From Candidatus Poribacteria bacterium (lineage in GTDB: Bacteria; Poribacteria; WGA-4E; PCPOR2b): a stretch of DNA of 64,000 bases. The stretch covers positions 3,232,001-3,296,000 of the forward strand of contig OZ244042.1 in assembly GCA_965215015.1 (NCBI GenBank). Direction: 5' to 3'. The notes below the pieces were generated by a model. The model saw only the letters and a list, made by a program, of their open reading frames with translations. It had not been told where the DNA came from and searched no databases. Position numbers and translations under genes: made by a program. Of this stretch, positions 23,448-37,800 are shown piece by piece. Within the stretch, counting starts at the first letter, position 1; every line of letters begins with the position of its first letter.

Positions 23448-26400
23448 ATGTTCAAAGCTGTAGCCAATACAGTAGACTTTATCGGCCAAGAACATCAAAT
23501 CTTAGATTTCTGGCGCGACAGCGAGGTTTTTCACAAACTCAAGAACCTGCGGCAGGATGGGCCTCGCTGGAGTTTCGTTGACGGACCAATTACTGCCAAT
23601 AACCCAATGGGTGTCCACCACGCATGGGGTCGTACGTACAAAGATCTCTTTCAGCGATTCAAAGCCATGCAAGGCTATCAGACCCGATACCAGAACGGGT
23701 TTGATTGCCAAGGACTCTGGATTGAGGTCAATGTCGAGCGCGATATGGGTTTCAAAGCCAAAAAGGACATTGAAGCCTATGGACTGGATAAATTTGTCAA
23801 CGCCTGCAAGCGGCAAGTACTCCGCCATGCAGCCACGCAGACAGAGCAATCCATACGGCTCGGCTACTGGATGAATTGGAACGATCCGGGTCTCTTGCGC
23901 GAACTAGAGAGGGAAATGGCACAGGATCCCTCACAGACCCTCACTGTGGAGGGGCCGAATGGTCCCATTACGGATACGGTTGAGCAACTTGTGGGAAGAC
24001 TCGGATTACCGGAGTTGGGGGGATCTTACTTCACGTTCTCCAATGAGAACAACTACACCATCTGGACGATGTTGAAGAAATGTTTCGACCGCGGTTGGAT
24101 CTATAAAGGTACCGATGTCATGCCGTGGTGTTCGCGGTGCGATACTGGCATCAGCCAGCATGAGATTGTCACCGACGGATACCGGGAACTCACGCATACC
24201 AGCATCTTCCTTCACTTCCCGCTGCGTAACCGCCCCGGCGAGAGCCTACTGGTCTGGACGACGACACCGTGGACGCTGACGAGCAATGTTGCAGCGGCGG
24301 TGCACCCAGATCTAATCTATGTTTTGGTGGAACAAGGCGAGCATCGTTTCTGGTTGAGCAAGGGGGCGTTAGAGAATGCCATCCGAGGGGGTTATCAGAT
24401 TCTTGCGGAGAAATCGGGCGGCGAATTGGAAGGCTGGACCTATGACGGTCCCTTCGATGAACTGCCAGCCCAACAGGCCTCTGGGGCAGTTGAGGGGCAC
24501 CGCGTTATCCTGTGGGATGAGGTTGGTGAAGCGGAGGGTACAGGGATTGTCCACACCGCACCGGGTTGTGGTGCTGAGGACTTTGAATTGAGTAAAGAAC
24601 ACAGTATCCCTGTCATCGCGCCGTTGGGAGCAGAGGGGATTTATCTCGACGGATTTGACTGGCTGACCGGACGCCAGGTTCACACGGTCGCGGAGGACAT
24701 CTTTGAAAACCTGAAACAGAAAGGGATTGTCTATCGCCTCGAAGACTACACCCACCGCTATCCGGTGTGTTGGCGCTGTGAAGAGGAGCTGGTCTTCCGC
24801 CTTGTGGACGAATGGTTCATCTCAATGGGCGACCAACTCGATAAACCGTATGAGCAGGTGACGGAGGCAGAGAAGGAACAGAATCTGCGCTACCAGATGA
24901 TGGAGGTTGTCCTCAACGAAACTAGGTGGTATCCTGCCTTTGGACTCGCTCGCGAACTCGACTGGCTGCGCAATATGCACGATTGGATGATTTCTAAGAA
25001 ACGCTACTGGGGACTGGCACTACCTATCTACGAATGCGAGGACTGCAACCATTTCCATGTGGTTGGAAGCTTGAAGGAATTGAAGAAACTTGCCGTTGAA
25101 GGTTGGGATGAATTTGAGGGACATACACCACATCGCCCTTGGATTGACGCGGTGAAGATTGCCTGCCCAGGTTGTGGGGCTGCTGTTTCCCGTATCCCGG
25201 ACGTTGGGAATCCTTGGCTGGATGCCGGTATCGTCAGCTTCAGCACGATGCAATATCGCACCGACCGCGACTACTGGCGTCAATGGTTCCCCGCTGATCT
25301 AATCAGCGAGAGTTTTCCGGGACAATTTCGGAACTGGTTCTATTCGCTGATTGCAATGAGTACGGTGATGGAACGGCGTGCCCCGTTTAAGCAAAATTTC
25401 AGTTATGCGACGTTGTTTGCAGAAGACGGACGCGCAATGCACAAATCCTGGGGAAATGCCATCTGGTTTGATGACGCCGCCGAGACGATGGGTGTGGACG
25501 TGATGCGCTGGATGTACTGCGCTGCCAAACCGGAGCAGAATCTGCTCTTTGGCTACAAGCACTCCGATGAGGTTCGTCGCCAAGTTCTCATTCCGTTCTG
25601 GAATGTGTATAGCTTTCTTGTCACTTATGCCAACGTTGATGGCTGGAAACCGGACGCGAATCTGTGGAAGGATACACCACAAAGGTCTGAAAATCTGCTT
25701 GACCGTTGGATTCTCTCCCGCCTGCAAAACACAGTCCGCTCGGTTACGGAGCGTCTGGAAGAATATTCCCCGGATGGTGCCTGCCGTGTCGTTGAATATT
25801 TTCTGGATGATCTGTCAAACTGGTATCTGCGTCGAAGTCGGCGCCGTTTCTGGAAGTCGGAAGCGGATATAGATAAGGAAGCCGCCTATCAGACGCTGTA
25901 CCAGGTTATGGTGACGACCAGTCGGCTGTTAGCACCGTTTGTCCCCTTTGTTACCGAGTCAATTTTCCAAAACTTGGTGTGTTCAGTTGATTCAGATGCC
26001 CCTGAAAGCGTCCACCTCTCCGATTACCCCGCCCTAGAGGAGGCACTGGTCGATACATCGTTGGAAGATGACATGAGGCTTGCCCGGGACTTAATCGGTT
26101 TGGGACGTGCCGCTCGGAATCATTCAGGGATCAAGACACGGCAACCGATTGGACGCATTGCGATCGGTGGAATCTCTGAGAAGCAACAAGCTGCCATCAA
26201 TCGGTTGTCCGCGCTTGTATTGGACGAGTTGAACGTCAAAGAGATCTCTTTCCACGGGGGGATTGACGAGTTCGCGACTTATACAATCAAGCCGAATTTT
26301 AAGCTGCTGGGCCCGAAATATGGGAAGAATGTCCAAGCGATTGCGAAAGCAATGTCAACGGCAAATGCACTCGATCTCAAACGGGAACTCGATGGAAACG

Positions 26401-26807
26401 GTGAATTGGAGATTCAGGCGGACGGTGTGAGTTACAGGCTAGACAGAGCGGAGGTTGATGTGCAATCGGAGAACCGGGCGGGTTACGCTGTCGAGGCAGA
26501 CGCTCACAAGTTTGTCGCCCTCTCGACGGAGTTGACACACGAACTTATCCTCGAAGGTTTCGCACGGGAGTTGGTCAACAAGATTCAGCAGATTCGGAAG
26601 GAAGCCGACTTCAATGTCTCTGACCGGATCGCGCTCAGTTTGGAATCGACGCCAATTGTCCACGAAGCGTTTGACTGTCACCGGGACTACATCACACATG
26701 AGACCTTGACGCTCCACGTCGTTGAGTCGTCAAGTGCAAATGCCTGTCTGAAATCACAGAAGGTCAACGGCGAGGATGCAACAATTGGTGTGGAGCAGGT
26801 GATTTAA
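23448..26807 (+). CDS. ileS: Isoleucine--tRNA ligase, type 2
   Basis: DGPITANNPMGVHH, GFDCQGL, WTTTPWTL, GTGIVHTAP, DWMISKKRYWG, AMHKS, IleRS2-like C-terminus (EGFARELVNKIQ). Confidence 0.96.
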   Translation: MFKAVANTVDFIGQEHQILDFWRDSEVFHKLKNLRQDGPRWSFVDGPITANNPMGVHHAWGRTYKDLFQRFKAMQGYQTRYQNGFDCQGLWIEVNVERDMGFKAKKDIEAYGLDKFVNACKRQVLRHAATQTEQSIRLGYWMNWNDPGLLRELEREMAQDPSQTLTVEGPNGPITDTVEQLVGRLGLPELGGSYFTFSNENNYTIWTMLKKCFDRGWIYKGTDVMPWCSRCDTGISQHEIVTDGYRELTHTSIFLHFPLRNRPGESLLVWTTTPWTLTSNVAAAVHPDLIYVLVEQGEHRFWLSKGALENAIRGGYQILAEKSGGELEGWTYDGPFDELPAQQASGAVEGHRVILWDEVGEAEGTGIVHTAPGCGAEDFELSKEHSIPVIAPLGAEGIYLDGFDWLTGRQVHTVAEDIFENLKQKGIVYRLEDYTHRYPVCWRCEEELVFRLVDEWFISMGDQLDKPYEQVTEAEKEQNLRYQMMEVVLNETRWYPAFGLARELDWLRNMHDWMISKKRYWGLALPIYECEDCNHFHVVGSLKELKKLAVEGWDEFEGHTPHRPWIDAVKIACPGCGAAVSRIPDVGNPWLDAGIVSFSTMQYRTDRDYWRQWFPADLISESFPGQFRNWFYSLIAMSTVMERRAPFKQNFSYATLFAEDGRAMHKSWGNAIWFDDAAETMGVDVMRWMYCAAKPEQNLLFGYKHSDEVRRQVLIPFWNVYSFLVTYANVDGWKPDANLWKDTPQRSENLLDRWILSRLQNTVRSVTERLEEYSPDGACRVVEYFLDDLSNWYLRRSRRRFWKSEADIDKEAAYQTLYQVMVTTSRLLAPFVPFVTESIFQNLVCSVDSDAPESVHLSDYPALEEALVDTSLEDDMRLARDLIGLGRAARNHSGIKTRQPIGRIAIGGISEKQQAAINRLSALVLDELNVKEISFHGGIDEFATYTIKPNFKLLGPKYGKNVQAIAKAMSTANALDLKRELDGNGELEIQADGVSYRLDRAEVDVQSENRAGYAVEADAHKFVALSTELTHELILEGFARELVNKIQQIRKEADFNVSDRIALSLESTPIVHEAFDCHRDYITHETLTLHVVESSSANACLKSQKVNGEDATIGVEQVI

Positions 26808-26937: not shown

Positions 26938-28581
26938 TCACTCAAGCTTTTGAAGCGACTCCTCAATATCGGCTTTGAGACTTTCATTCCCGTTCTGTTT
27001 CGCAAGTTTCAAGGCAGTTCTGAGGTCTTGCTTCCCCTCCCAAAGACGTTTCAACCCCACCTTCGCATCTCCCCGACAGTAGTATAAATAGGCATCATCG
27101 GGTTCGAGACGGATAGCTGTGTCATAATCGGTAATAGCGGCGGCATATTGCCCTAATTCCTCCTTCGCATATCCCCGGCTGTAGTAAGCATAGACATAAT
27201 CAGGTTTGAGACGGATAGCCGTGTCATAATCGGTAATAGCGGCGGCATATTGCCCTAAGTCTGTTTTTGCATATCCCCGACAGCAATAGGCATAGGCATA
27301 ATCGGGTTCGAGGCGGATAGCCGTGTCATAATCGGTAATAGCGGCGGCATATTGCCCTAAGTCTGTTTTTGCATATCCCCGACAGCAATAGGCATAGGCA
27401 TAATCGGGTTCGAGACGGATAGCTGTGTCATAATCGGTAATAGCGGCGGCATATTGCCCTAAGTACCTCTTCGCATAGCCCCGAAAGGAGTAGGCAATGG
27501 CATAATCGGGTTCGAGGCGGATAGCCGTGTCATAATCGGTAATAGCGGCGGAATGTTGACCTAAATCTGTTTTTGCATTTCCCCGGCTGTAGTAAGCCTC
27601 GGCAAAATCGGGTTTGAGGCGGATAGCCGTGTCATAATCGGTGATAGCGGCGGCATATTGCCCTAAGCTCTCCTTCGCACCCCCCCGGCTGTAGTAAGCC
27701 TCGGCAAAATCGGGTTCGAGGCGGATAGCCGTGTCATAATCGGTAATAGCGGCGGCATATTGCCCTAATTCCTCCTTCGCATCTCCCCGGCTGTAGTAAG
27801 CCTTGGCATAATCGGGTTTGAGACGGATAGCCGTGTCATAATCGGTAATAGCGGCGGCATATTGCCCTAATTCTGCTTTTGCAGCTCCCCGAAGGCAGTA
27901 GACATAGACATAGACATAATCAGGTTTGAGACGGATAGCCGTGTCATAATCGGTAATAGCGGCGGCATATTGCCCTAAGTCTGTTTTTGCATATCCCCGA
28001 CAGCAATAGGCATAGGCATAATCGGGTTTGAGACGGATTGCTGTGTCATAATCAGAGATAGCGGCGGCATATTGCCCTAAGTCTGTTTTTGCATATCCCC
28101 GACAGCAATAGGCATAGGCATAATCGGGTTTGAGACGGATTGCTGTGTCATAATCGGAGATGGCGGCGGCATATTGCCCTAATTCCTTCTTCGCATCTCC
28201 CCGGCTGTAGTAAGCCTTGGCATAATCGGGTTTGAGACGGATAGCCGTGTCATAATCAGAGATAGAGGCGGCACATTGCCCTAACTTCCCCTTCGCATAT
28301 CCCCGACAGCAGTAGGCCTCGGCATAATCGGGCTTGAGGCGGATAGCCGTGTCATAATCGGTAATAGCGGCGGAATGTTGCTCTAACCTTTCCTTCGCAA
28401 AACCCCGAGAGACATAAACATCGGCATAATCGGAGTTGAGGCGGATAGCCGTGTCATAATCAGAGATGGCGGCGGAATATTGCCCTAAGCTCTCCTTCGC
28501 ATCTCCCCGACAGCAGTAGGCCTCGGCAAAATCGGGTTTGAGACGGATTGCGATGTTCATAATCAGTATTGCGATTTTCAT
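26938..28581 (-). CDS. TPR array protein, copy 1 (15 repeats; disrupted 5' end)
   Basis: 34-aa AxAYxxRGxAKxxLGQ..AAIxDYDTAIRLKPD repeats plus a capping helix. Confidence 0.85.
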   Translation of the reverse strand: MKIAILIMNIAIRLKPDFAEAYCCRGDAKESLGQYSAAISDYDTAIRLNSDYADVYVSRGFAKERLEQHSAAITDYDTAIRLKPDYAEAYCCRGYAKGKLGQCAASISDYDTAIRLKPDYAKAYYSRGDAKKELGQYAAAISDYDTAIRLKPDYAYAYCCRGYAKTDLGQYAAAISDYDTAIRLKPDYAYAYCCRGYAKTDLGQYAAAITDYDTAIRLKPDYVYVYVYCLRGAAKAELGQYAAAITDYDTAIRLKPDYAKAYYSRGDAKEELGQYAAAITDYDTAIRLEPDFAEAYYSRGGAKESLGQYAAAITDYDTAIRLKPDFAEAYYSRGNAKTDLGQHSAAITDYDTAIRLEPDYAIAYSFRGYAKRYLGQYAAAITDYDTAIRLEPDYAYAYCCRGYAKTDLGQYAAAITDYDTAIRLEPDYAYAYCCRGYAKTDLGQYAAAITDYDTAIRLKPDYVYAYYSRGYAKEELGQYAAAITDYDTAIRLEPDDAYLYYCRGDAKVGLKRLWEGKQDLRTALKLAKQNGNESLKADIEESLQKLE

Positions 28582-29076
28582 AATCGTTGATAGCGGCGGA
28601 ATGTTGCCCTAATCCCTCCTTCGCATATCCCCCGACTAACGTAAGCATAGGCATAATCGGGTTTGAGACGGATTGCTGTGTCATAATCGGAAATTGCCCC
28701 CTGATAGTCCCCCAACCTTGATTTGTCAGTACCTCGAAGGAGGTGGGTCTTAGCAGATATGGATTGACTCTGTTGCAAAAGCTGTAATCCCTTCAATGGT
28801 GTATGTTATGTTCTTACCCGCCAACTTTGGGGTGCCTTGTGCTGCACCTTCGATGACGTGGTAGTTGGTAGCGATCAGGTGCTGCCGGACAAAAAAGCCG
28901 CTGCCCCGTCCGAGGGGTATACCGTTTCTATCCTGTATCTCTAAAGATACGGTAGCCGCTAGTGCTTTTTCTGCAATCTGTGGTGCGGTTTGCGCGTTGC
29001 TTGTGGGGCAGTATAGCAGCACGATCACAAGTGAAACTAGATGCAGCTGCTCTAATAATTTTTTCTGATGTTTCAT
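28578..29076 (-). pseudogene. 5' part of copy 1: signal peptide, truncated trypsin-like domain and 2 frameshifted TPRs
   Basis: GSGFFV..IATNYHVI (His motif) with no Asp/Ser motifs; frameshifts near 28780, 28629-28633 and 28555-28585. Confidence 0.7.
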
Positions 29077-29430
29077 TGCATCTCCCCTTCGTAAATTCAC
29101 CTGTGTCTAAAAGATTATGTTTCTGTTTTGGATATTAATTTCGCATTTCAGTTTGTAGTAGGGTAATTCATTGCGCTTTCGGACGGGCGATCAATCGCCC
29201 TACTACAAACCTACGCCCTTGCTGTAGTTGCCCGATTCATTGGGCGTTGGCAATGGTGTCAGCGATGAATCGCTGAACGACAAAACTTTGAACGTTCAAC
29301 TGCGTGAGTCCTACTGGTTTTCTTTTGTACGCTATTATACCCTATCCTCTAAAAGTGTTGCAACATTCTGTCTAAATCTGTATTTTAAGATTAACAGGGT
29401 TGATTCTATTCGCCCCTATTTATTATCCTG

Positions 29431-29671
29431 AAAATCGTTCCATCCTGAGCATCCTGATTCTGACAATTTATACCACCCTCCCTGATACCATCATTCATCC
29501 CGTTCGACAGCGACTGGTGTGGAGCAGGTGATTTAAGGCATCATCTTGAACTGTTACGCTTTGGGCTTCAATAAGAGCGGTAACTACCCGCTATATCGGT
29601 GCGAGCCACGTAACACCTTTTTGCTGTGTAGGTTGTCAATTCACCTCCCGCGCAACGGGTTTATTCTCACT
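29431..29671. repeat. Tandem-duplication junction (right flank fused to left flank)
   Basis: 29431-29515 matches 33522-33606 (includes the oxidoreductase 3' end). 29515-29671 matches 26786-26942 (includes the ileS 3' end). Confidence 0.9.
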
Positions 29672-31703
29672 AGTCCACTGCTTGAAGGTGTGCCTCAATT
29701 AAGGCTTTGAGAATTTCATCCCCATTCTGTTGTGCAAGTTTCAAGGCGGTTCTGAGGTCTTGCTTCCCCTCCCAAAGACGTTCCAGCATCATCTTCGCAC
29801 GTCCTCGGTCGTAGTAAGCCCTGGCAAAATCAAGTTTGAGATGGATTGCGATGTCATAATCGGCGATGACAGCGGAATATTGCTCTAAGTGCCACTTCGC
29901 ATTTCCCCGGCCGTAGTAAGCCTCGGCATCATCGGGTTTGAGACGGATAGCCTCGTCATAATCGGCGATAGCGGTGGAATCTTGCCCTAAGTGCCACTTC
30001 GCATTTCCCCGACTGACGTAAGCCCTGGCAAAATCAAGTTCGAGATGGATTGCGATGTCATAATCAGCGATAGCGGCGGAATATTGCCTTAAGTCTGCTT
30101 TTGCATCTCCCCGACTGACGTAAGCATAGGCATCATCAGGTTTGAGACGGATAGCCTCGTCATAATCAGCGATAGCGGCGAAATGTTGTCCTAAGTTTGC
30201 TTTTGCCCTTCCCCGAAAGTAGTAAGCATAGGCATCATCAGGTTTGAGACGGATAACCATGTCATAATCGGCGATGGCGGCGGAATGTTGTCCTAAGTTT
30301 GCTTTTGCCCTTCCCCGATTGGCGTAAGCATAGGCATCATCAGGTTTGAGACGGATAGCCTCGTCATAATCGGCGATGGCGGCGAAATGTTGTCCTAAAT
30401 TCCTCTTCGCATTTCCCCGAAAGTAGTAAGCATCGGCAAAATCGGGCTTGAGACGGATAACCATGTCATAATCGGCGATGGCGGCGGCATATTGTCCTAA
30501 GTGCCACTTCGCATTTCCCCGATTGGCGTAAGCATAGGCATCATCAGGTTTGAGACGGATAGCCTCGTCATAATCAGCGATAGCGGCGGAATGTTGCCCT
30601 AAGTTTGCTTTTGCCCTTCCCCGAAAGTAGTAAGCATCGGCATCATCGGGTTTGAGACGGATAGCCTCGTCATAATCGGCGATGGCGGCGAAATGTTGTC
30701 CTAAATTCCTCTTCGCATTTCCCCGAAAGTAGTAAGCATCGGCAAAATCGGGCTTGAGACGGATAACCATGTCATAATCGGCGATGGCGGCGGAATGTTG
30801 CCCTAAGTTTGCTTTTGCCCTTCCCCGAAAGTAGTAAGCATCGGCATCATCAGGTTTGAGACGGATAGCCTCGTCATAATCAGCGATAGCGGCGAAATGT
30901 TGTCCTAAGTTTGCTTTTGCCCTTCCCCGAAAGTAGTAAGCATCGGCATCATCAGGTTTGAGACGGATAGCCTCGTCATAATCAGCGATAGCGGCGAAAT
31001 GTTGTCCTAAGTTTGCTTTTGCCCTTCCCCGATTGGCGTAAGCATAGGCATCATCTGGGTTGAGGCGGATAGCCGTGTCATAATCAGAGATGGCAGCGGC
31101 ATATTGCCCTAAGTTTGCTTTTGCCCTTCCCCGGCTGTAGTAAGCATAGGCATGATCGGGTTCGAGGCGGATAGCCGTGTCATAATCAGAGATGGCAGCG
31201 GCATATTGCCCTAAGTTTGCTTTTGCCCTTCCCCGGCTGTAGTAAGCATAGGCATGATCGGGTTCGAGGCGGATAGCCGTGTCATAATCAGAGATGGCAG
31301 CGGCATATTGCCGTAATTCCTCTTTCGCCAATCCCCGAAGGACGTAAGCCTCGGCAAAATCGGGTTCGAGGCAGATAGCCGTGTCATAATCAGAGATGGC
31401 GGCGGCATATTGCCCTAAAACCACCTTCACAATTCCCCGGCTGTAGTAAGTATGGACATAATCGGGTTTTAGACGGATAGCCGTGTCATAATCGGTGATA
31501 GCGGCGGCATATTGCCCTAAGTCTACTTTTGCCCTTCCCCGATTGGCGTAAGCCTCGACATAATCTGGGTTGAGGCGGATAGCCTGCATATAGTCCGCAA
31601 TCGCCCCCTGATAGTCCCCCAACCTTGATTTGTCATTACCTCGAAGGAGGTAAGTATCAGCAGATATGGATTGACTCTGTTGCAAAAGCTGTAATCCCTT
31701 CAA
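29670..31703 (-). CDS. TPR array protein, copy 2 (19 repeats)
   Basis: 677-aa ORF of 34-aa repeats with the LWEGKQDLRTALKLA cap. Confidence 0.87.
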   Translation of the reverse strand: MKGLQLLQQSQSISADTYLLRGNDKSRLGDYQGAIADYMQAIRLNPDYVEAYANRGRAKVDLGQYAAAITDYDTAIRLKPDYVHTYYSRGIVKVVLGQYAAAISDYDTAICLEPDFAEAYVLRGLAKEELRQYAAAISDYDTAIRLEPDHAYAYYSRGRAKANLGQYAAAISDYDTAIRLEPDHAYAYYSRGRAKANLGQYAAAISDYDTAIRLNPDDAYAYANRGRAKANLGQHFAAIADYDEAIRLKPDDADAYYFRGRAKANLGQHFAAIADYDEAIRLKPDDADAYYFRGRAKANLGQHSAAIADYDMVIRLKPDFADAYYFRGNAKRNLGQHFAAIADYDEAIRLKPDDADAYYFRGRAKANLGQHSAAIADYDEAIRLKPDDAYAYANRGNAKWHLGQYAAAIADYDMVIRLKPDFADAYYFRGNAKRNLGQHFAAIADYDEAIRLKPDDAYAYANRGRAKANLGQHSAAIADYDMVIRLKPDDAYAYYFRGRAKANLGQHFAAIADYDEAIRLKPDDAYAYVSRGDAKADLRQYSAAIADYDIAIHLELDFARAYVSRGNAKWHLGQDSTAIADYDEAIRLKPDDAEAYYGRGNAKWHLEQYSAVIADYDIAIHLKLDFARAYYDRGRAKMMLERLWEGKQDLRTALKLAQQNGDEILKALIEAHLQAVD

Positions 31704-31983
31704 TGGTGTATGTCATGTTCTGACCCGCCAGTTTTGCGGTGCCTTGTGCTGCACCTTCGATGACGTGGTAGTTGGTAGCGATCAGGTGCTGCCGGACAAA
31801 AAAGCCGCTGCCCCGTCCGAGTCGTATACCGTTTCTATCCTGTATCTCTAAAGATACGGTAGCCGCTAATGCCTTTTCTGCAATCTGTGGTACGGTTTGC
31901 GCGTTGCTTGTGGGGCATTGTAGCAGTGCGATCATAAGTGTAACTAGATGCAGCTGCTCTAACAATTTTTTCTTATGTTTCAT
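31657..31983 (-). pseudogene. Signal peptide plus truncated trypsin-like protease fragment (copy 2), out of frame with the TPRs
   Basis: MKHKKK..SNA/QT, GSGFFV, ATNYHVI; overlaps the TPR ORF in another frame. Confidence 0.7.
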
Positions 31984-32419
31984 CGGATCTCCCCTTCGTA
32001 AATTCACCTGTGTCTAAAAGATTATGTTTCTGTTTTGAATATTAATTTCGCATTTCAGTTTGTAGTAGGGTAATTCATTGCGCGTTCGGACGGGCGATGA
32101 ATCGCCCTACTACAAACCTAAGAGCTTGCTGCGGTTGCCCGATTCATTGGGCGTTGGCAATGGTGTCCTGTGGCGATGAATCGCCAAACGACAAAACTTT
32201 GAACGTTCAACTGCGTAAGTCCTACTCGTTTTCTTTTTTATATTATTATACCCTATCCTCCTAAAAGTATTGCAACATTCTGTCTAAATCTGTATTTTAA
32301 GATTAACAGGGTTGATTCTATTCGCTACTATTTATTATCCTGAAAATCCTTCCATCCTGAGCATCCTGATTCTGACAATTTATACCACCCTCCCTAATAC
32401 CATCACAGGTTTAGTCTCA

Positions 32420-33301
32420 CTAGTCCACTAATTGAAGCAACTCCTCAATTGTGGCTTTGAGATTTTCATCCCCGTTCCGTTTCGCAAGTTTTAAGGCAGC
32501 TCTGAGGTCATGCTTCCCCTCCCAAAGACGTTTCAGCCTTACCTTTGCAAAACCCCGGTTGAAGTAAGCCTCGGCATCATCGGGTTCGAGACGGATAGCC
32601 GTGTCATAATCGGTAATAGCGGCGGAATATTGTCCTAATTCTGCTTTTGCAGCTCCCCGACTGCAGTAAGCCTCGGCATAATCGGGCTTGAGGCGGATAG
32701 CCGTGTCATAATCGGTAATAGCGGCGGCATGTTGCCCTGATTCTGCTTTTGCATATCCCCGAAAGCAGTAGGCCTCGGTATAATCGGGTTTGAGGCGGAT
32801 AGCCGTGTCATAATCGGTAATAGCGGCGGCATGTTGCCCTAAGCTCTCCTTCGCATATCCCCGAAGGCAGTAGGCATCGGCGTAATCGGGTTTGAGACGG
32901 ATAGCTGTGTCATAATCGGCGATGGCGGCGGCATGTTGCCCTAAGAGCAACTTCGCATTTCCCCGAAAGTAGTAAGCCTCGGCATAATCGGGTTTGAGAT
33001 GGATTACGATGTTCATAATCAGTATTGCGATTTTCATAATCGGTGATAGGGGCGGCATGTTGCCCTAATTCCTCCTTCGCATATTCCCCCGACTAACGTA
33101 AGCATCGGCATAATCGGGTTCGAGACGGATAGCCGTGTCATAATCGGCGATGGCGGCGGCATATTGCCCTAATCCCTCCTTTGCGTTTCCCCGAAGGCAG
33201 TAGGCATTGGCATAATCAGGTTTGAAACGGATAACCTGCGTGTAGTCCGCAATCGCCCCCTGATAGTCCCCCAACCTTGCATCTCCCCTTCGTAAATTCA
33301 C
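32420..33301 (-). pseudogene. TPR array copy 3 (about 7 repeats), signal/protease part deleted, in-frame TAG
   Basis: ORFs 33065-33301 and 32420-33058 share one frame, separated by TAG at 33065-33067. Confidence 0.75.
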
Positions 33302-33581
33302 CTGTGTCTAAAAGATTATGTTTCTGTTTTGAATATTAATTTCGCAGCTCAGTTTGTAATGGCGTAATTCATTGAGCGTTTGGACGGGCGATAAATCGCC
33401 CTACTACAAACCTAAGAGCTTGCTGCGGTTGCCGAATTCATCGGGCGTTGGAAATGGTGTCCTGTGGCGATGAATCGCCGAACTACAAAGCTTTGAACGT
33501 TCAACACTATTTATTATCTTGAAAATCCTTCCATCCTGAGCATCCTGATTCTGACAATTCATACCACCCTCCCTGACACCA

Positions 33582-34604
33582 TCATTCATCCCGTTCGACA
33601 GCGACTTCCCGTTTCTCCTCCCAAGATTGCACAATCGCTTCCACAACGCGCAAGGCCTGAAGCCCATCCTTGCCCGTCGGCACCGGCGGACGATTGTTGA
33701 GAAGGTCATCGACAAACGCCTTGACGCGCCACGCAAAGGTGCCGTCAAAGGCGAGCTCCTCCATCCGAAAAATGGAGGGACGGTATTCCTCAACAACCGA
33801 ATCCTCTCGTCGCATCAGGGTGGCAGAACTGAGGACATTATCAACGACAATTTCCGCCTCCGATCCACAGATTTCGAGGCGTTCAATCGGGTGCGTGAAA
33901 TCACTGTCCCAGCTGGCAAGCAGCGAAGCGACGGCGTCGGTTTCATATCGCATGGAGAGTGCCATACTCGTCCAGCATGGGTGCTCATCGGGGTTCGCAT
34001 CTTTGATGCGTGGGTGTGCCATTTGCGAGCAGACCGCAACAATCTCACCGCCGAACCAGTGCAATAGATCGATGGCGTGGGTCTGCAGTTCGTACAGCAG
34101 ATAGTAGGGCCCCTTCCACGTTGAAACTGGTCCCCCCTGCGACAACTTCATGTCGATGTACGCAATCTGTCCACACGCGCCGCTATCAAACCATTCCCGC
34201 GCCTTCGCATATCCCGGCGCAAACCGGCGGTTGTAGTCAATAGCAAGGTGAACGCCTTTCTCCTTCGCTTTTACGACCATCTGCGCTGCTTCATTAATGT
34301 CAAGCGATAACGGCTTCTCGCACATAACATGCTTCCCCGCTTCCAGGCATTCGATGACTGGCTCAAAGTGCATATGGTCAGCCGTGACAACATCAATAGC
34401 GTCACACGCTTCGTTCGCCACCATTTCCTGAATTGACGGATACCAATTGGGAATGCCGAGTTCCTGTGCGCGGTTTTTCGCCTTTTCTTGATCAATATCA
34501 CAAACAGCAACGAGTTCTGCTTGGGGGTGTTCGAGGTATCCCAGTTGATGCCGCATTCCAATTCCGCCACACCCCACGGCTGCCACTTTCAATTTTTTTG
34601 ACAT
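33582..34604 (-). CDS. Gfo/Idh/MocA oxidoreductase
   Basis: VAAVGCGGIG, GKHVMCEKP, NRRF, THAID; start MSKK. Confidence 0.92.
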   Translation of the reverse strand: MSKKLKVAAVGCGGIGMRHQLGYLEHPQAELVAVCDIDQEKAKNRAQELGIPNWYPSIQEMVANEACDAIDVVTADHMHFEPVIECLEAGKHVMCEKPLSLDINEAAQMVVKAKEKGVHLAIDYNRRFAPGYAKAREWFDSGACGQIAYIDMKLSQGGPVSTWKGPYYLLYELQTHAIDLLHWFGGEIVAVCSQMAHPRIKDANPDEHPCWTSMALSMRYETDAVASLLASWDSDFTHPIERLEICGSEAEIVVDNVLSSATLMRREDSVVEEYRPSIFRMEELAFDGTFAWRVKAFVDDLLNNRPPVPTGKDGLQALRVVEAIVQSWEEKREVAVERDE

Positions 34605-34847
34605 TTTGCGTCCTTTCGATTGATCCATCCACAAAGAAACTTTCGTTTGAAATGTAAGGGTATAATAACATATCGCAAGTTTATATGATACAGGTTTCTG
34701 AGTCTCTTGATCTGCCCCAAGAATTATGCTATAATATTGACCAAGTTGGATTGCAAATATGCCGATTTTCCAATATGCCATACACAAATCCAATTCACAA
34801 AACTCGAAAAACTGTGTTCTACACTTCATCACAACCCCATTGAAATC

Positions 34848-37800
34848 ATGATAGCTACCCTGACCAAAGGACAAGTTCTCCTACCGATTGATCGTGAGGT
34901 CCGTACCCGCCTTGAGGCCGGTCGTGCGGATACCTTTCTGCATATCGTCCCGACTGACCATGCCCGTCTCAAGTGGCACCGCGAATATCTAAGGCAGGCC
35001 CCAAACCGAGCTATTGCGGACTTGCACATCTACACCCTCGACAACCTTGTCCGACGGTTTTTCTATAGTCGTCTGAATAGTAGGGGGCGTAGACACACCG
35101 GTGTGGGGATCCAAACAGTGTGGACACACAAAATCACGGAGCAGGAGCAGCTCCCATTTTTGAAACCGCAGCCTGAAACTCGCGTCCCCCACGGAACCAT
35201 AAGGCAGTTGAGAGAAACAGTAAACCAACTCAAGGCAAGTGGGGTAGATTGGCAGCAACTACAAGAAGATTCGATTCCAAACGATGTGGATGCCCCCAGT
35301 AAACTGACAGACCTAATCACCTTTTACAAAGCGTACGAGACACGCCTTGGCTCGCGATGGGTTGATCGCGCGGACATCCATCGCACCGTTTCCGAATACC
35401 TTACCCAGAGCCCAGAGCGCGCAGAAACGTTGATGAAGCAGGTTTTTCCAAACGTTGATTTGGTGGTTGTCAACGGTTTCGATGGATTATTCCCTTACGA
35501 TTTTGCAATTCTGACCGGCATCGCCAACTTGCCATCTATAGGCATGGGTATTGTCTTTGACTTCGATGAACAGAACGAATCCCTCTTTGGGCATGTCAAA
35601 GCGAACTATGATCGATTCCTGAGTTGTGGCTTTGAGGGACATAGGGAGGGGAGAGAAACCCCTGCCTCCGCCCTCAATCGGCACCTCGCCCAAAATCTGT
35701 TCCGCACAGATCGGGGAAGGGGTTCTTCCATTGACAAACTAGCACTTACGGACCAGATCTCCCTGTTGTATCCCCTAAGCCGTGTCCAAGAGGTAGAGGA
35801 AATTGCTACGTTGATTAAACGACTTGTATTGAGCCAGCCCTCACTATCACTGGATCAGATATGCGTCACGTTTTACAAGCTTGACGCTTATGCACCGCTC
35901 ATCCGTGAGATCTTTCCGCTCTACGGCATTCCCTACACCCTGGAATGGAATGAAAGGCTTGAAAATTCTATGGTCGTTGTGTCGATTTTTTCCTTATTAG
36001 AGCGAATTCAAGGGAATGCATCCCCCCGAACTCGAAAGAAGGTTTCACAGAGCTCCTACTTTCAGAGCGATGATTTGGACTCGGTGATTGACGGTTGCGG
36101 CTTAAACGCAGAACTGTCGCCGGACGCTTTTCGAGAAACCTTTGATCGGTTGATGGAAAGCCTAAAAGTCCGTCAGCAGATTCTGAAGGGTAGTTGGGAA
36201 TTCAAAACGCGGTTCGCCTCGCCCCAGATGAACGCCTATCGTCAGTTCCTCAGACTCATTGACGAGTTGGTTGAGTTCCTGATAATGGAGTCTGGAGCTG
36301 AGTCATGTCATTCGCTTGGCAGCTATATCAGTTGGCTCAGATTGATGACTTCAGAATCCACTTATCAGTGGGGAAATTCAAACGATAATGGGGTTCGTAT
36401 CCTGCCGCTCAGCCAAACGAACGATTTATCCTTTGATACTGTCATCTTGGGTGGTTTGGTTGATGGCGAATTTCCCTCAATTTTTCGCTCTGATACTTTT
36501 CTGCCTTCCAAGCGAAGAGGTACGGAATCAGATCGGCTGCGCGAGGACCGTTTTCTTTTTTATCAAGCCCTCACGCTCTATCGAAAGCGGCTGTATCTGC
36601 TGAGTCCACAGCATGATGGTGAAATTGAGTTGGTGCCCTCTTCATTTATTGACGAACTGCAGCGCGCCGCTGAGATTAATACCTCCACGAAGGAAGACAA
36701 TACCCTTTTTAGTACGGAGAATTTCCTCAAAGATTATGGGGCATTTGTTTGGGAACATTCGGAATCGGAGCAAGTCGAGACACCCACTGTCCCTTCGACA
36801 ATGTTACCGACAGTTCGTTTGGTTGCACACAACGTCCGTGTGGAAAAGAGCCGTACTATCTCGCATGAACTTCCGCAGTATGAAGGACAGCTCCTTCCAA
36901 ATTTACTGTCTCCGGTAAGCCTTGACGCGCTCGAACGGCGGCGTGAAAAGATCTATTCGGTGAGCCAATTAGAGGCCTATGGCACGTGTCCATTCCAATA
37001 TTTCTCCAGGCGGGTATTGAGGCTCAAACCAACCGAAAAGGAGGAAACGGGCTTAACAAGCATGAAGAAAGGGAGCTTGGCGCACGAAATCTTGTTTGAG
37101 TTTTACAATCACCGTCGGGATGTCCCTCCAATTTCTGAATGTACGGATGAGGAGTTTGAGGAAGCGCGCAAAGAGCTACAGCAAATCGCACGACGCTATT
37201 TGGATGCGGAGGCGGCTCACCAGTCCAACAGGGCGGAAAAACTGTTTTGGGATATTGAGGTGGAAAGATTCATTGGTGGTCATGGTAGGACCGGTGTCTT
37301 GCCCGCATTCCTTGAGGCAGAGAGGGAACGAAATTTTGAGGTTCAACCCCATCATTTTGAAGTTGGGTTTGGGCCCAGTGATGGATTGGGCCCCACCGAT
37401 CCGTTCCTCGGCAGCGTGGAGGCGATAGCGGTTGGGGAGGTCCTCTTATCAGGAAAAATAGACAGAGTTGAGTTGGGAAATGGGATGTTCGTTATCGGCG
37501 ACTACAAAACAGGCAGCAACACCCCCAAGTTGAACGATATCCTTGAGGGACGTAGCCTCCAATTGCCGCTCTATATCGCTGTCGTAGAACAGCTATTGAA
37601 GGGTCAATCAGCCGCGATTCAAGGTTTTGAGGAAGATCCTGAATCGGTTCAGGGGGTGGGAGGCGTTTACTATGTGCTGCAGGAGGAGAGCGGAACGGAA
37701 CTCGGTATTGGGGACAGAGATTACAACCAAAAAGCGTTTCAGGCTTCATCTCGGAGCGGTCAGCTATTACCCAATTCAAGGTATCAAATCGGGGATACAC

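Follow-up and report, generated by a model that had tools for sequence, protein, structure and literature searches.

Three tandem tetratricopeptide-repeat genes in a Candidatus Poribacteria genome as probable relics of an exported protease family

Introduction

The tetratricopeptide repeat (TPR) genes described here lie on a stretch of 64,000 nucleotides from the genome of a sponge-symbiont Candidatus Poribacteria bacterium (assembly GCA_965215015.1, contig OZ244042.1, positions 3,232,001 to 3,296,000). This stretch is referred to below as the window, and coordinates are those of the window unless another genome or locus is named. The minus strand of positions 26938-33301, from the gene 1 stop codon to the gene 3 leader, carries three paralogs in tandem, whose arrays number 17, 19 and 7-8 TPR units of 102 bp each. 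A preliminary description had seen in these genes a natural repertoire of binding proteins. Judged by sequence comparison with intact homologues, all three genes are disabled, and they are probably the relics of a family of exported proteases with TPR arrays that turns over by birth and death.

The locus and its three interrupted genes

The unit counts include the in-frame 34-residue units together with the first, broken and capping units, as read from a three-frame translation anchored on the DY..AI.L motif. They reproduce the roughly 17, 19 and 7 repeats first reported, and Tandem Repeats Finder (TRF) likewise returns 102-bp arrays at 27060-28568 (14.7 copies, 85% matches), 29811-31585 (17.4 copies, 83% matches) and 32563-33004 (4.3 copies, 87% matches). 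The long open frames of genes 1, 2 and 3 encode 547, 677 and 212 amino acids, each with an intact C-terminal cap, and match Pfam TPR_11 with E values of 1e-132, 1e-125 and 5e-44, which places them in the TPR family. The TPR signature residues (positions 4, 7, 8, 11, 20, 24, 27 and 32) recur in tandem 34-residue helix-turn-helix units. A window unit aligns in register with the consensus TPR proteins of the PDB (E = 8e-70), and standard TPR numbering therefore applies.

Genes 1 and 2 open with a frame of 116 codons, in which a leader resembling a signal peptide is followed by the beginning of a trypsin-like domain, catalytic His included, before a stop is reached; the TPR array lies downstream of this stub in another frame. 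Alignment to an intact gene from a related locus, L017, reveals a 374-nt deletion (374 mod 3 = 2) with an identical junction in both genes, which has removed the catalytic Asp and Ser so that the His region alone survives. The gene 1 stub scores 19.3 bits against Trypsin_2, under the cut-off, and over the 348 nt of the gene 2 stub region (31660-32007) the DNA identity between the two genes is 94%. Gene 3 has neither a signal peptide nor a protease part, its leader being joined straight to a TPR unit. A frameshifted unit is common to genes 1 and 3, with insertions of +23 and +24 nt that share their make-up (a lengthened G run, a 21-nt duplication and a further single-base insertion), and the gene 3 copy contains a stop. 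The complete His-Asp-Ser triad of the HtrA/Do-type (S1C) proteases is found in none of the three genes. This context was absent from the preliminary description, which did not remark that all three genes are interrupted and that the arrays of genes 1 and 2 follow protease stubs. The features are as follows.

26938-27093, minus strand: gene 1 capping unit, C-terminal helices (LWEGKQDLRTALKLAKQNG...) and stop codon
27094-28527, minus strand: gene 1 main array, 14 canonical 102-nt units (TRF and unit alignment)
28528-28652, minus strand: gene 1 broken unit of 125 nt; an extra G in a CGGGG run, a 21-nt duplication and one inserted base add 23 nt and shift the frame
28653-28754, minus strand: gene 1 first TPR unit (AKTHLLRGTDKSRLGDYQGAISDYDTAIRLKPDY), in a frame that differs from those of the stub and the main array
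28750-29076, minus strand: gene 1 stub open reading frame (ORF), putative signal peptide and start of trypsin-like domain with catalytic His (TNYHVIEGA); the stop lies just past the deletion junction
28780-28781, minus strand: gene 1 junction of the 374-nt out-of-frame deletion (alignment to the intact L017 gene), with coordinates taken from the gene 2 junction by the 2907-nt offset between both genes
29670-29825, minus strand: gene 2 capping unit, C-terminal helices and stop codon
29826-31661, minus strand: gene 2 array, first unit and 17 canonical 102-nt units in an open frame, in which a convincing start site was not seen
31657-31983, minus strand: gene 2 stub ORF, putative signal peptide and His region
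31687-31688, minus strand: gene 2 junction of the out-of-frame 374-nt deletion also present in gene 1 (seen in the alignment to the intact gene)
32420-32983, minus strand: gene 3, four canonical units, capping unit, C-terminal helices and stop codon
32984-33109, minus strand: gene 3 broken unit of 126 nt, homologous to that of gene 1; holds a stop codon
33110-33211, minus strand: gene 3 canonical unit
33212-33301, minus strand: gene 3 head, leader codons of the family (VNLRRGDA) joined directly to the second half of the first TPR unit
23448-26807, plus strand: ileS, conserved flank and synteny anchor
33582-34874, minus strand: Gfo/Idh/MocA-like oxidoreductase (named by reading of the sequence), the other conserved flank and synteny anchor

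Both lesions of gene 1 recur in public sequencing runs. Five such runs contain most of a 1.2-kb probe, none of the listed runs being recorded as RNA, and four of them (X1, X2, X3 and X5) were compared. Contigs of X1 match gene 1 exactly at 28400-28674 and 28645-29468, and those of X5 at 28446-28674 and 28696-29483, in each case spanning both lesions; these two runs come from two studies, one compared run may be the source of the assembly itself, and the contigs are short, bearing on the gene 1 lesions and not spanning whole arrays. In the deep runs X2 and X3 the reference form occurs at the depth of a single copy, together with a variant compatible with the broken unit of gene 3. One scan of metagenome contigs with a 39-nt word across the junction gave no matches. 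Programmed frameshifting as a means of joining stub and array was judged unlikely: the overlap in gene 2 lacks a known +1-type slippery site with a stop, and gene 1, as its sequence reads, would require three shifts.

Within the main arrays the sole length change is a 6-nt in-frame insertion at 27910-27915 of gene 1, an extra Val-Tyr that produces VYVYVY at the start of one unit. A three-unit higher-order period suggested for gene 2 by TRF (period 306) was dropped, as identity at lag 3 is not above that at lags 1 and 2. The spacers between the three genes include, at 29145-29312 and 29381-29470, short interspersed repeats present in about 45-60 copies in the genome, and similar pieces follow genes 2 and 3 (about 32300-32420 and 33404-33500). 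The comparison with public runs shows them covered tens of times more deeply than the local baseline. They resemble miniature inverted-repeat transposable elements or repetitive extragenic palindromic elements, and may perhaps have promoted rearrangements.

The intact family in related genomes

The window genes are, on the basis of homology, copies of a family of predicted exported HtrA-like protease-TPR genes. An intact paralog elsewhere in the window genome encodes 607 amino acids with a signal peptide, a His/Asp/Ser protease, a TPR array and the same C-terminal cap, and ten intact ORFs of 406-620 amino acids in relatives show the same order of leader, protease, TPR array and cap. The intact form consists of a signal peptide, judged by eye to be of the Sec type, a trypsin-like protease with His/Asp/Ser, between about 3 and 18 TPR units, and the conserved cap. 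Against the Do/HtrA family model the protease part scores 124.5 bits over residues 61-228, under the whole-family cut-off of 416. The PDZ domains of HtrA proteases sit where this family carries its TPR array; no match to a PDZ domain was found, and the NCBIfam matches in intact members end at the protease domain, after which the array follows. Nor was a NOD/STAND nucleoside triphosphatase (NTPase) domain found, either by Pfam on the window frames or by NCBIfam on intact relatives.

At the syntenic site, between ileS and the oxidoreductase or addB, relatives hold one to four intact genes: four in tandem in L017 and one each in L014, L019 and L021. The gene of L021 has the three catalytic motifs and no C-terminal cap, and may be cut short. 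Frameshifted copies occur at the loci of four relatives (L093, L011, L094 and L095), which, together with the variable copy number, suggests that the family turns over by birth and death. At one of these, L093 (G001:C1:5411500-5418500), a member is split into at least eight frame pieces, one with His/Asp, one with Ser and six with TPRs, the last of which bears the C-cap; decay there is far more advanced than in the window copies.

Of 72 related loci, 65 are labeled Candidatus or uncultured Poribacteria, the remainder being four of 'uncultured bacterium', two of Chloracidobacterium and one of Opitutia. Relatives of the N-terminal stub are present in 34 of the 41 genomes searched, including that of the window (G000, one contig, 98% complete), and in all 19 other genomes of the genus. 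Two of the four L017 genes (L017:2638-4611 and L017:9026-10468) keep the protease triad and lack the hydrophobic core of the signal peptide, with MKHEKEMSSDALT... where MKHQKKMLWQLPLVTLVG... would otherwise stand, so that exported and non-exported forms seem to coexist. About 9.7 kb before the start of the window, G000:C1:3222223-3224499 contains a frame of at least 759 amino acids with the same kind of leader and HtrA-like protease, a proline-rich linker and then a non-TPR C-terminal region, the frame being open at the end of the stretch that was read. It represents a further architecture in which this protease module is used.

Variation among the repeat units

The alignment covered 36 canonical in-frame units, of which gene 1 contributes 14, gene 2 17 and gene 3 five. 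Their mean pairwise identity is 80% in DNA, 72% in protein and 83% over the 28 framework residues, and to call the repeats near-identical, as was done at first, is too strong. Shannon entropy at positions 2, 5, 6, 9, 12 and 13 is 2.31, 1.89, 2.31, 2.64, 2.67 and 2.89 bits, followed by position 34 (1.73 bits) and position 22 (1.54 bits), while 12 positions are invariant. The wide variation reported for these six positions is therefore real, and all six of the residue signatures that had been quoted for them occur among the 36 units. It had also been stated that codons at positions 5 and 6 keep a pyrimidine (Y) as their third base. This holds there without exception, position 5 being NNC and position 6 NNY in 36 of 36 units, but does not extend to the other four variable positions: the third base is T or G at position 2, A or G at position 12 and mixed at position 13, for example.

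The six positions had been equated with the groove contacts of TPRs, and they do match the peptide contacts of HOP TPR1 and TPR2A (positions 2, 5, 6, 9, 12 and 13), as given by Magliery and Regan (PMC1261162). Their paper lists 2, 5, 9, 12, 13, 33 and 34 as the most variable TPR positions, and treats hypervariable binding positions as general to TPRs. In 244 units taken from 61 intact ORFs of the family, the five most variable positions are 12, 13, 2, 5 and 9, all among the six, with position 6 ranking seventh, behind position 18. This distribution of variability is shared by the whole family and by TPRs generally, and is not special to the window locus. Asn occupies position 6 in 144 of the 244 units of intact relatives and in 4 of the 36 window units; some intact relatives are also without it.

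To compare rates, the proportions of non-synonymous (pN) and synonymous (pS) differences were used. In the window, pN at the six groove codons is 0.51 against a framework pS of 0.27, a raw ratio of 1.86 (bootstrap 1.67-2.07), the differences having been counted pairwise between recombining paralogous units and not estimated under a site model, with a bootstrap that ignores shared ancestry. The corresponding ratio is 2.23 in the intact cluster of L017 and L006, where the six codons have a pS of only 0.076 and a pN of 0.51, and 3.34 in an intact gene of 18 units. Measured against their own pS, the six codons of the window units give 1.24. Diversifying selection, as proposed, may be at work: non-synonymous change at the groove runs at about twice the framework synonymous level, but exceeds synonymous change at the same codons only slightly and in pairwise counts. 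As the same excess is found in intact relatives, diversification combined with concerted evolution appears to be a trait of the family. A ratio of 2.73 from nearest-neighbor unit pairs was discarded as biased, because those pairs had been chosen by framework similarity.

Recombination between units

The units are mosaics. In the four-gamete test 193 of 300 informative site pairs fail, which corresponds to at least 13 recombination events within 102 nt, and RAKAN occurs as a cassette behind four different first halves, as NAKWH does behind several. Both the recombinational shuffling of units and the reassortment of half-repeats, as originally proposed, are borne out by these data. The states of codons 12-13 travel with synonymous markers at codons 10-11, and this linkage points to the shuffling of old cassettes and not to fresh point mutagenesis.

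Framework pS is 0.27 within the window (0.23-0.31), 0.418 between window units and those of L017, and 0.655 between window units and 100 sampled from the 244 units of relatives. The value for ileS between the window genome and L017 is also 0.418, equal to that of the framework. Synonymous sites are more alike within the window cluster than between species, as is characteristic of concerted evolution.

Mutagenesis by a diversity-generating retroelement (DGR) had been raised as a possible source of the NNY codons, and this suggestion failed on both points examined. The reverse transcriptase family PF00078 has no matches in G000, under a search that matched control genomes, nor in G003, the relative with the strongest signal, whose intact four-gene cluster includes L006, nor in G007; matches were obtained in the relatives G011, G014 and G022. 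A DGR template would put nearly all mismatches on adenine. When each of the 36 units was taken in turn as template, at most 46% of mismatches fell on one base, and that base was T or G, not A; all four bases occur in the consensus at variable sites. Elsewhere in G000 the search turned up no more unit-like DNA exceeding 70% protein identity. With no PF00078 reverse transcriptase found in the genome and no unit acting as an adenine-specific template, DGR-like mutagenesis was rejected.

The origin of the window genes

The explanation that we favor, with a probability of roughly 0.6, is that the window genes are pseudogenes, left over from the birth-and-death evolution of the exported protease-TPR family. 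The three tandem genes would descend from HtrA-like serine protease-TPR genes, and every window copy has lost its protease core and the integrity of its frame. The arrays would have been grown and scrambled by unequal crossing-over and gene conversion between the 102-bp units, processes that keep the framework alike through concerted evolution and yield chimeric units. The variation at the six positions would have been inherited from the family, whose concave groove outpaces synonymous sites and may select the substrate of the protease.

A number of observations are consistent with decay. A Shine-Dalgarno-like GGGAG is found only before the ancestral ATG of the stubs, as at 7-8 nt before the ATG at 29076 in gene 1, and the TPR frames of genes 1 and 2 have none. 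Changes seen in single units fall on the framework as 7 synonymous and 13 non-synonymous, close to the 24:71 expected under neutrality, and they strike A20 and P32, both signature residues, and G15, which is conserved in the family. The C-terminal caps have a pN/pS of about 0.7 (pS 0.27-0.33, pN 0.18-0.22). Between genes 1 and 2, pS is 0.095 in the 5' regions, 0.31 in the arrays and 0.33 in the caps; the 5' parts being younger than the arrays and caps suggests that the deletion was spread by gene conversion and tolerated. Predicted sigma-70 promoters and intrinsic terminators between 26700 and 33700 are fewer than in shuffled sequence (6 against 11.8 and 2 against 6.6) and are uninformative.

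Several points weigh on the other side. The array frames run for 14 and 18 units without a stop, where the other two frames are closed in nearly every unit, and no unit of the main arrays contains a stop or a frameshift, although the absence of stops carries little weight because only about 1.4 would be expected among 27 singleton changes. Framework pN/pS over all pairs of window units is 0.32, a figure that may reflect only selection before decay. An ATG with a hydrophobic stretch behind it (MKIAILIMNIAI...) arises in the broken unit that genes 1 and 3 have in common, and could provide a new start or leader. To these must be added the pairwise nature of the pN/pS counts.

Such points bear most directly on the possibility, unlikely in our view but deserving consideration, that the arrays are working TPR-only binders, translated from internal starts (candidates are ATG 28581 in gene 1, TTG 31703 in gene 2 and ATG 33058 in gene 3) and with a groove diversity maintained by selection. 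The long open frames with their intact caps, the undamaged main arrays and the groove excess all fit such proteins, and TPR-type eukaryotic-like proteins of sponge symbionts can, as has been reported, alter sponge-bacterium interactions (PMC13747020). However, the candidate starts of genes 1 and 2 have no Shine-Dalgarno-like motif before them, and the motif in gene 3 ends 12 nt from its ATG. The products would lack a signal peptide and be cytoplasmic, unlike the intact family. The groove excess is shared with intact relatives and need not be maintained in the window, recent framework changes are nearly neutral, and the lesions appear to have spread between copies, as the low 5' pS of genes 1 and 2 indicates. 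The original notion of a functioning binder repertoire is not supported, given the disabled state of all three genes and the missing ribosome-binding motifs before the TPR frames of genes 1 and 2. More speculative still, and rather improbable, is a broader picture in which the family is the secreted counterpart of immune-receptor repeat evolution: multi-copy exported proteases with grooves diversified by shuffling and positive selection against changing host or competitor proteins, with the window arrays alive either as TPR-only decoys or binders, the hydrophobic stretch of genes 1 and 3 providing the new start, or as a store of units for conversion.

In another model the arrays, lacking promoter and protease, would be silent donor cassettes, and gene conversion would transfer their units to an expressed protease-TPR gene, much as in pseudogene-templated antigenic variation. 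Recombination is indeed extensive among the units and between the three copies, and decayed copies have been kept adjacent at a conserved site, but the locus has no expressed acceptor, and no recent tract links the arrays to the sole intact paralog found in the genome, whose best DNA match to them covers 33 nt at 88% and whose units reach at most 70% protein identity to theirs. We regard this model as very unlikely. Artefacts of assembly or sequencing in a metagenome-assembled genome are harder still to credit. Tandem repeats and homopolymer runs are error-prone, and frameshifted copies do appear at the loci of several relatives, but the public contigs, of four runs from two studies, reproduce the gene 1 junction and broken unit without difference, and the same deletion junction is present in two diverged copies. 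Least credible of all is a DGR-like or other targeted mutator that rewrites the first two bases of groove codons. Third bases are kept at positions 5 and 6 as bases 1 and 2 vary, and the six-codon pS of the L017/L006 cluster is small beside its pN, both as a mutator would predict; strong selection for amino-acid change over short times also keeps third bases, however, and the missing PF00078 in G000 and G003 with positive controls, the spread of mismatches and consensus bases, and the linkage of variable states to flanking synonymous markers all speak against it.

Significance

The relic interpretation has a direct consequence for annotation, in that gene callers will report three 'TPR proteins' here which are in fact the tails of broken protease genes. 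The window copies are probably out of use, and the locus is a decayed member of an already known kind of gene, which leaves our knowledge of TPRs unchanged. For the biology of sponge symbionts, it represents a well-documented case of a fast-turning exported protease-TPR family, in which groove codons changing at about twice the synonymous rate, combined with turnover in copy number, form the pattern expected at an interface with a host or competitor. For protein engineering, the units provide a natural series of consensus-like TPR scaffolds that vary mainly where designers randomize.

Comparison with known systems

Among the listed titles and opening parts of abstracts on Poribacteria TPR or trypsin proteins and on HtrA-TPR fusions in symbionts, no description of this family was found. 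The closest enzymes are HtrA, DegP and DegQ (Do family, MEROPS S1C), with which intact members share the His/Asp/Ser motifs and an N-terminal export signal. They differ in having a TPR array in place of PDZ domains and in their score against the family model (124.5 against 416 bits), and of the window copies genes 1 and 2 keep only the His region and gene 3 nothing of the protease. The combination of a trypsin-like domain with TPRs is shared by clusters in the ESM Atlas named 'tetratricopeptide repeat-containing serine protease', which are commonest in Cyanobacteriota and Acidobacteriota, and the architecture itself is therefore already catalogued. The names of these clusters are automatic and their functions untried, and they carry no record of groove hypervariation or of tandem copy-number change.

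In terms of mechanism, the restriction of variation to bases 1 and 2 of a few binding-surface codons is reminiscent of DGRs, which are distinguished by a reverse transcriptase, a template repeat and adenine specificity, none of which is seen here, where moreover some 40 units vary and not one region. With regard to host association, Wu et al. (2026, PMC13747020) report, in the portion available, that TPR-type eukaryotic-like proteins of sponge symbionts affect sponge-bacterium interactions. Those proteins and the window family have in common that they are TPR proteins of sponge-associated bacteria for which a role in host interaction is proposed; theirs are encoded by intact genes, single ones of which were tried by expression, and that portion describes no protease fusion or repeat diversification.

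The evolutionary pattern has its nearest parallels among eukaryotes. In Ectocarpus, NB-ARC-TPR genes contain shuffled TPR exons (Zambounis et al. 2012, PMC3341825), and that study describes clustered paralogs with rapid birth and death, TPR pieces that have been inactivated, single modules that are shuffled, and indications of diversifying selection. The window family has the same traits, with such selection as a possible reading of its groove excess. The Ectocarpus TPR is a 42-residue exon shuffled between introns, whereas the window units form a continuous tandem DNA repeat of 34 residues apparently subject to unequal crossing-over, and the effector domains of the two also differ. For the TPR, ANK and WD repeats of fungal NOD-like receptors (NLRs), Dyrka et al. 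(2014, PMC4986451) report likeness within genes, shuffling, concerted evolution, and variable and positively selected sites that map, in TPRs, to the concave face. The window units resemble these fungal repeats in being alike within a gene, in their shuffling and concerted evolution, and in the variable concave positions of their TPRs. The fungal arrays stand behind a NACHT or NB-ARC NTPase in cytoplasmic eukaryotic receptors and exceed 85% internal protein identity, whereas in the bacterial family the partner is a putatively exported HtrA-like protease without any NTPase, internal identity is 72%, and the copies in the window are broken.

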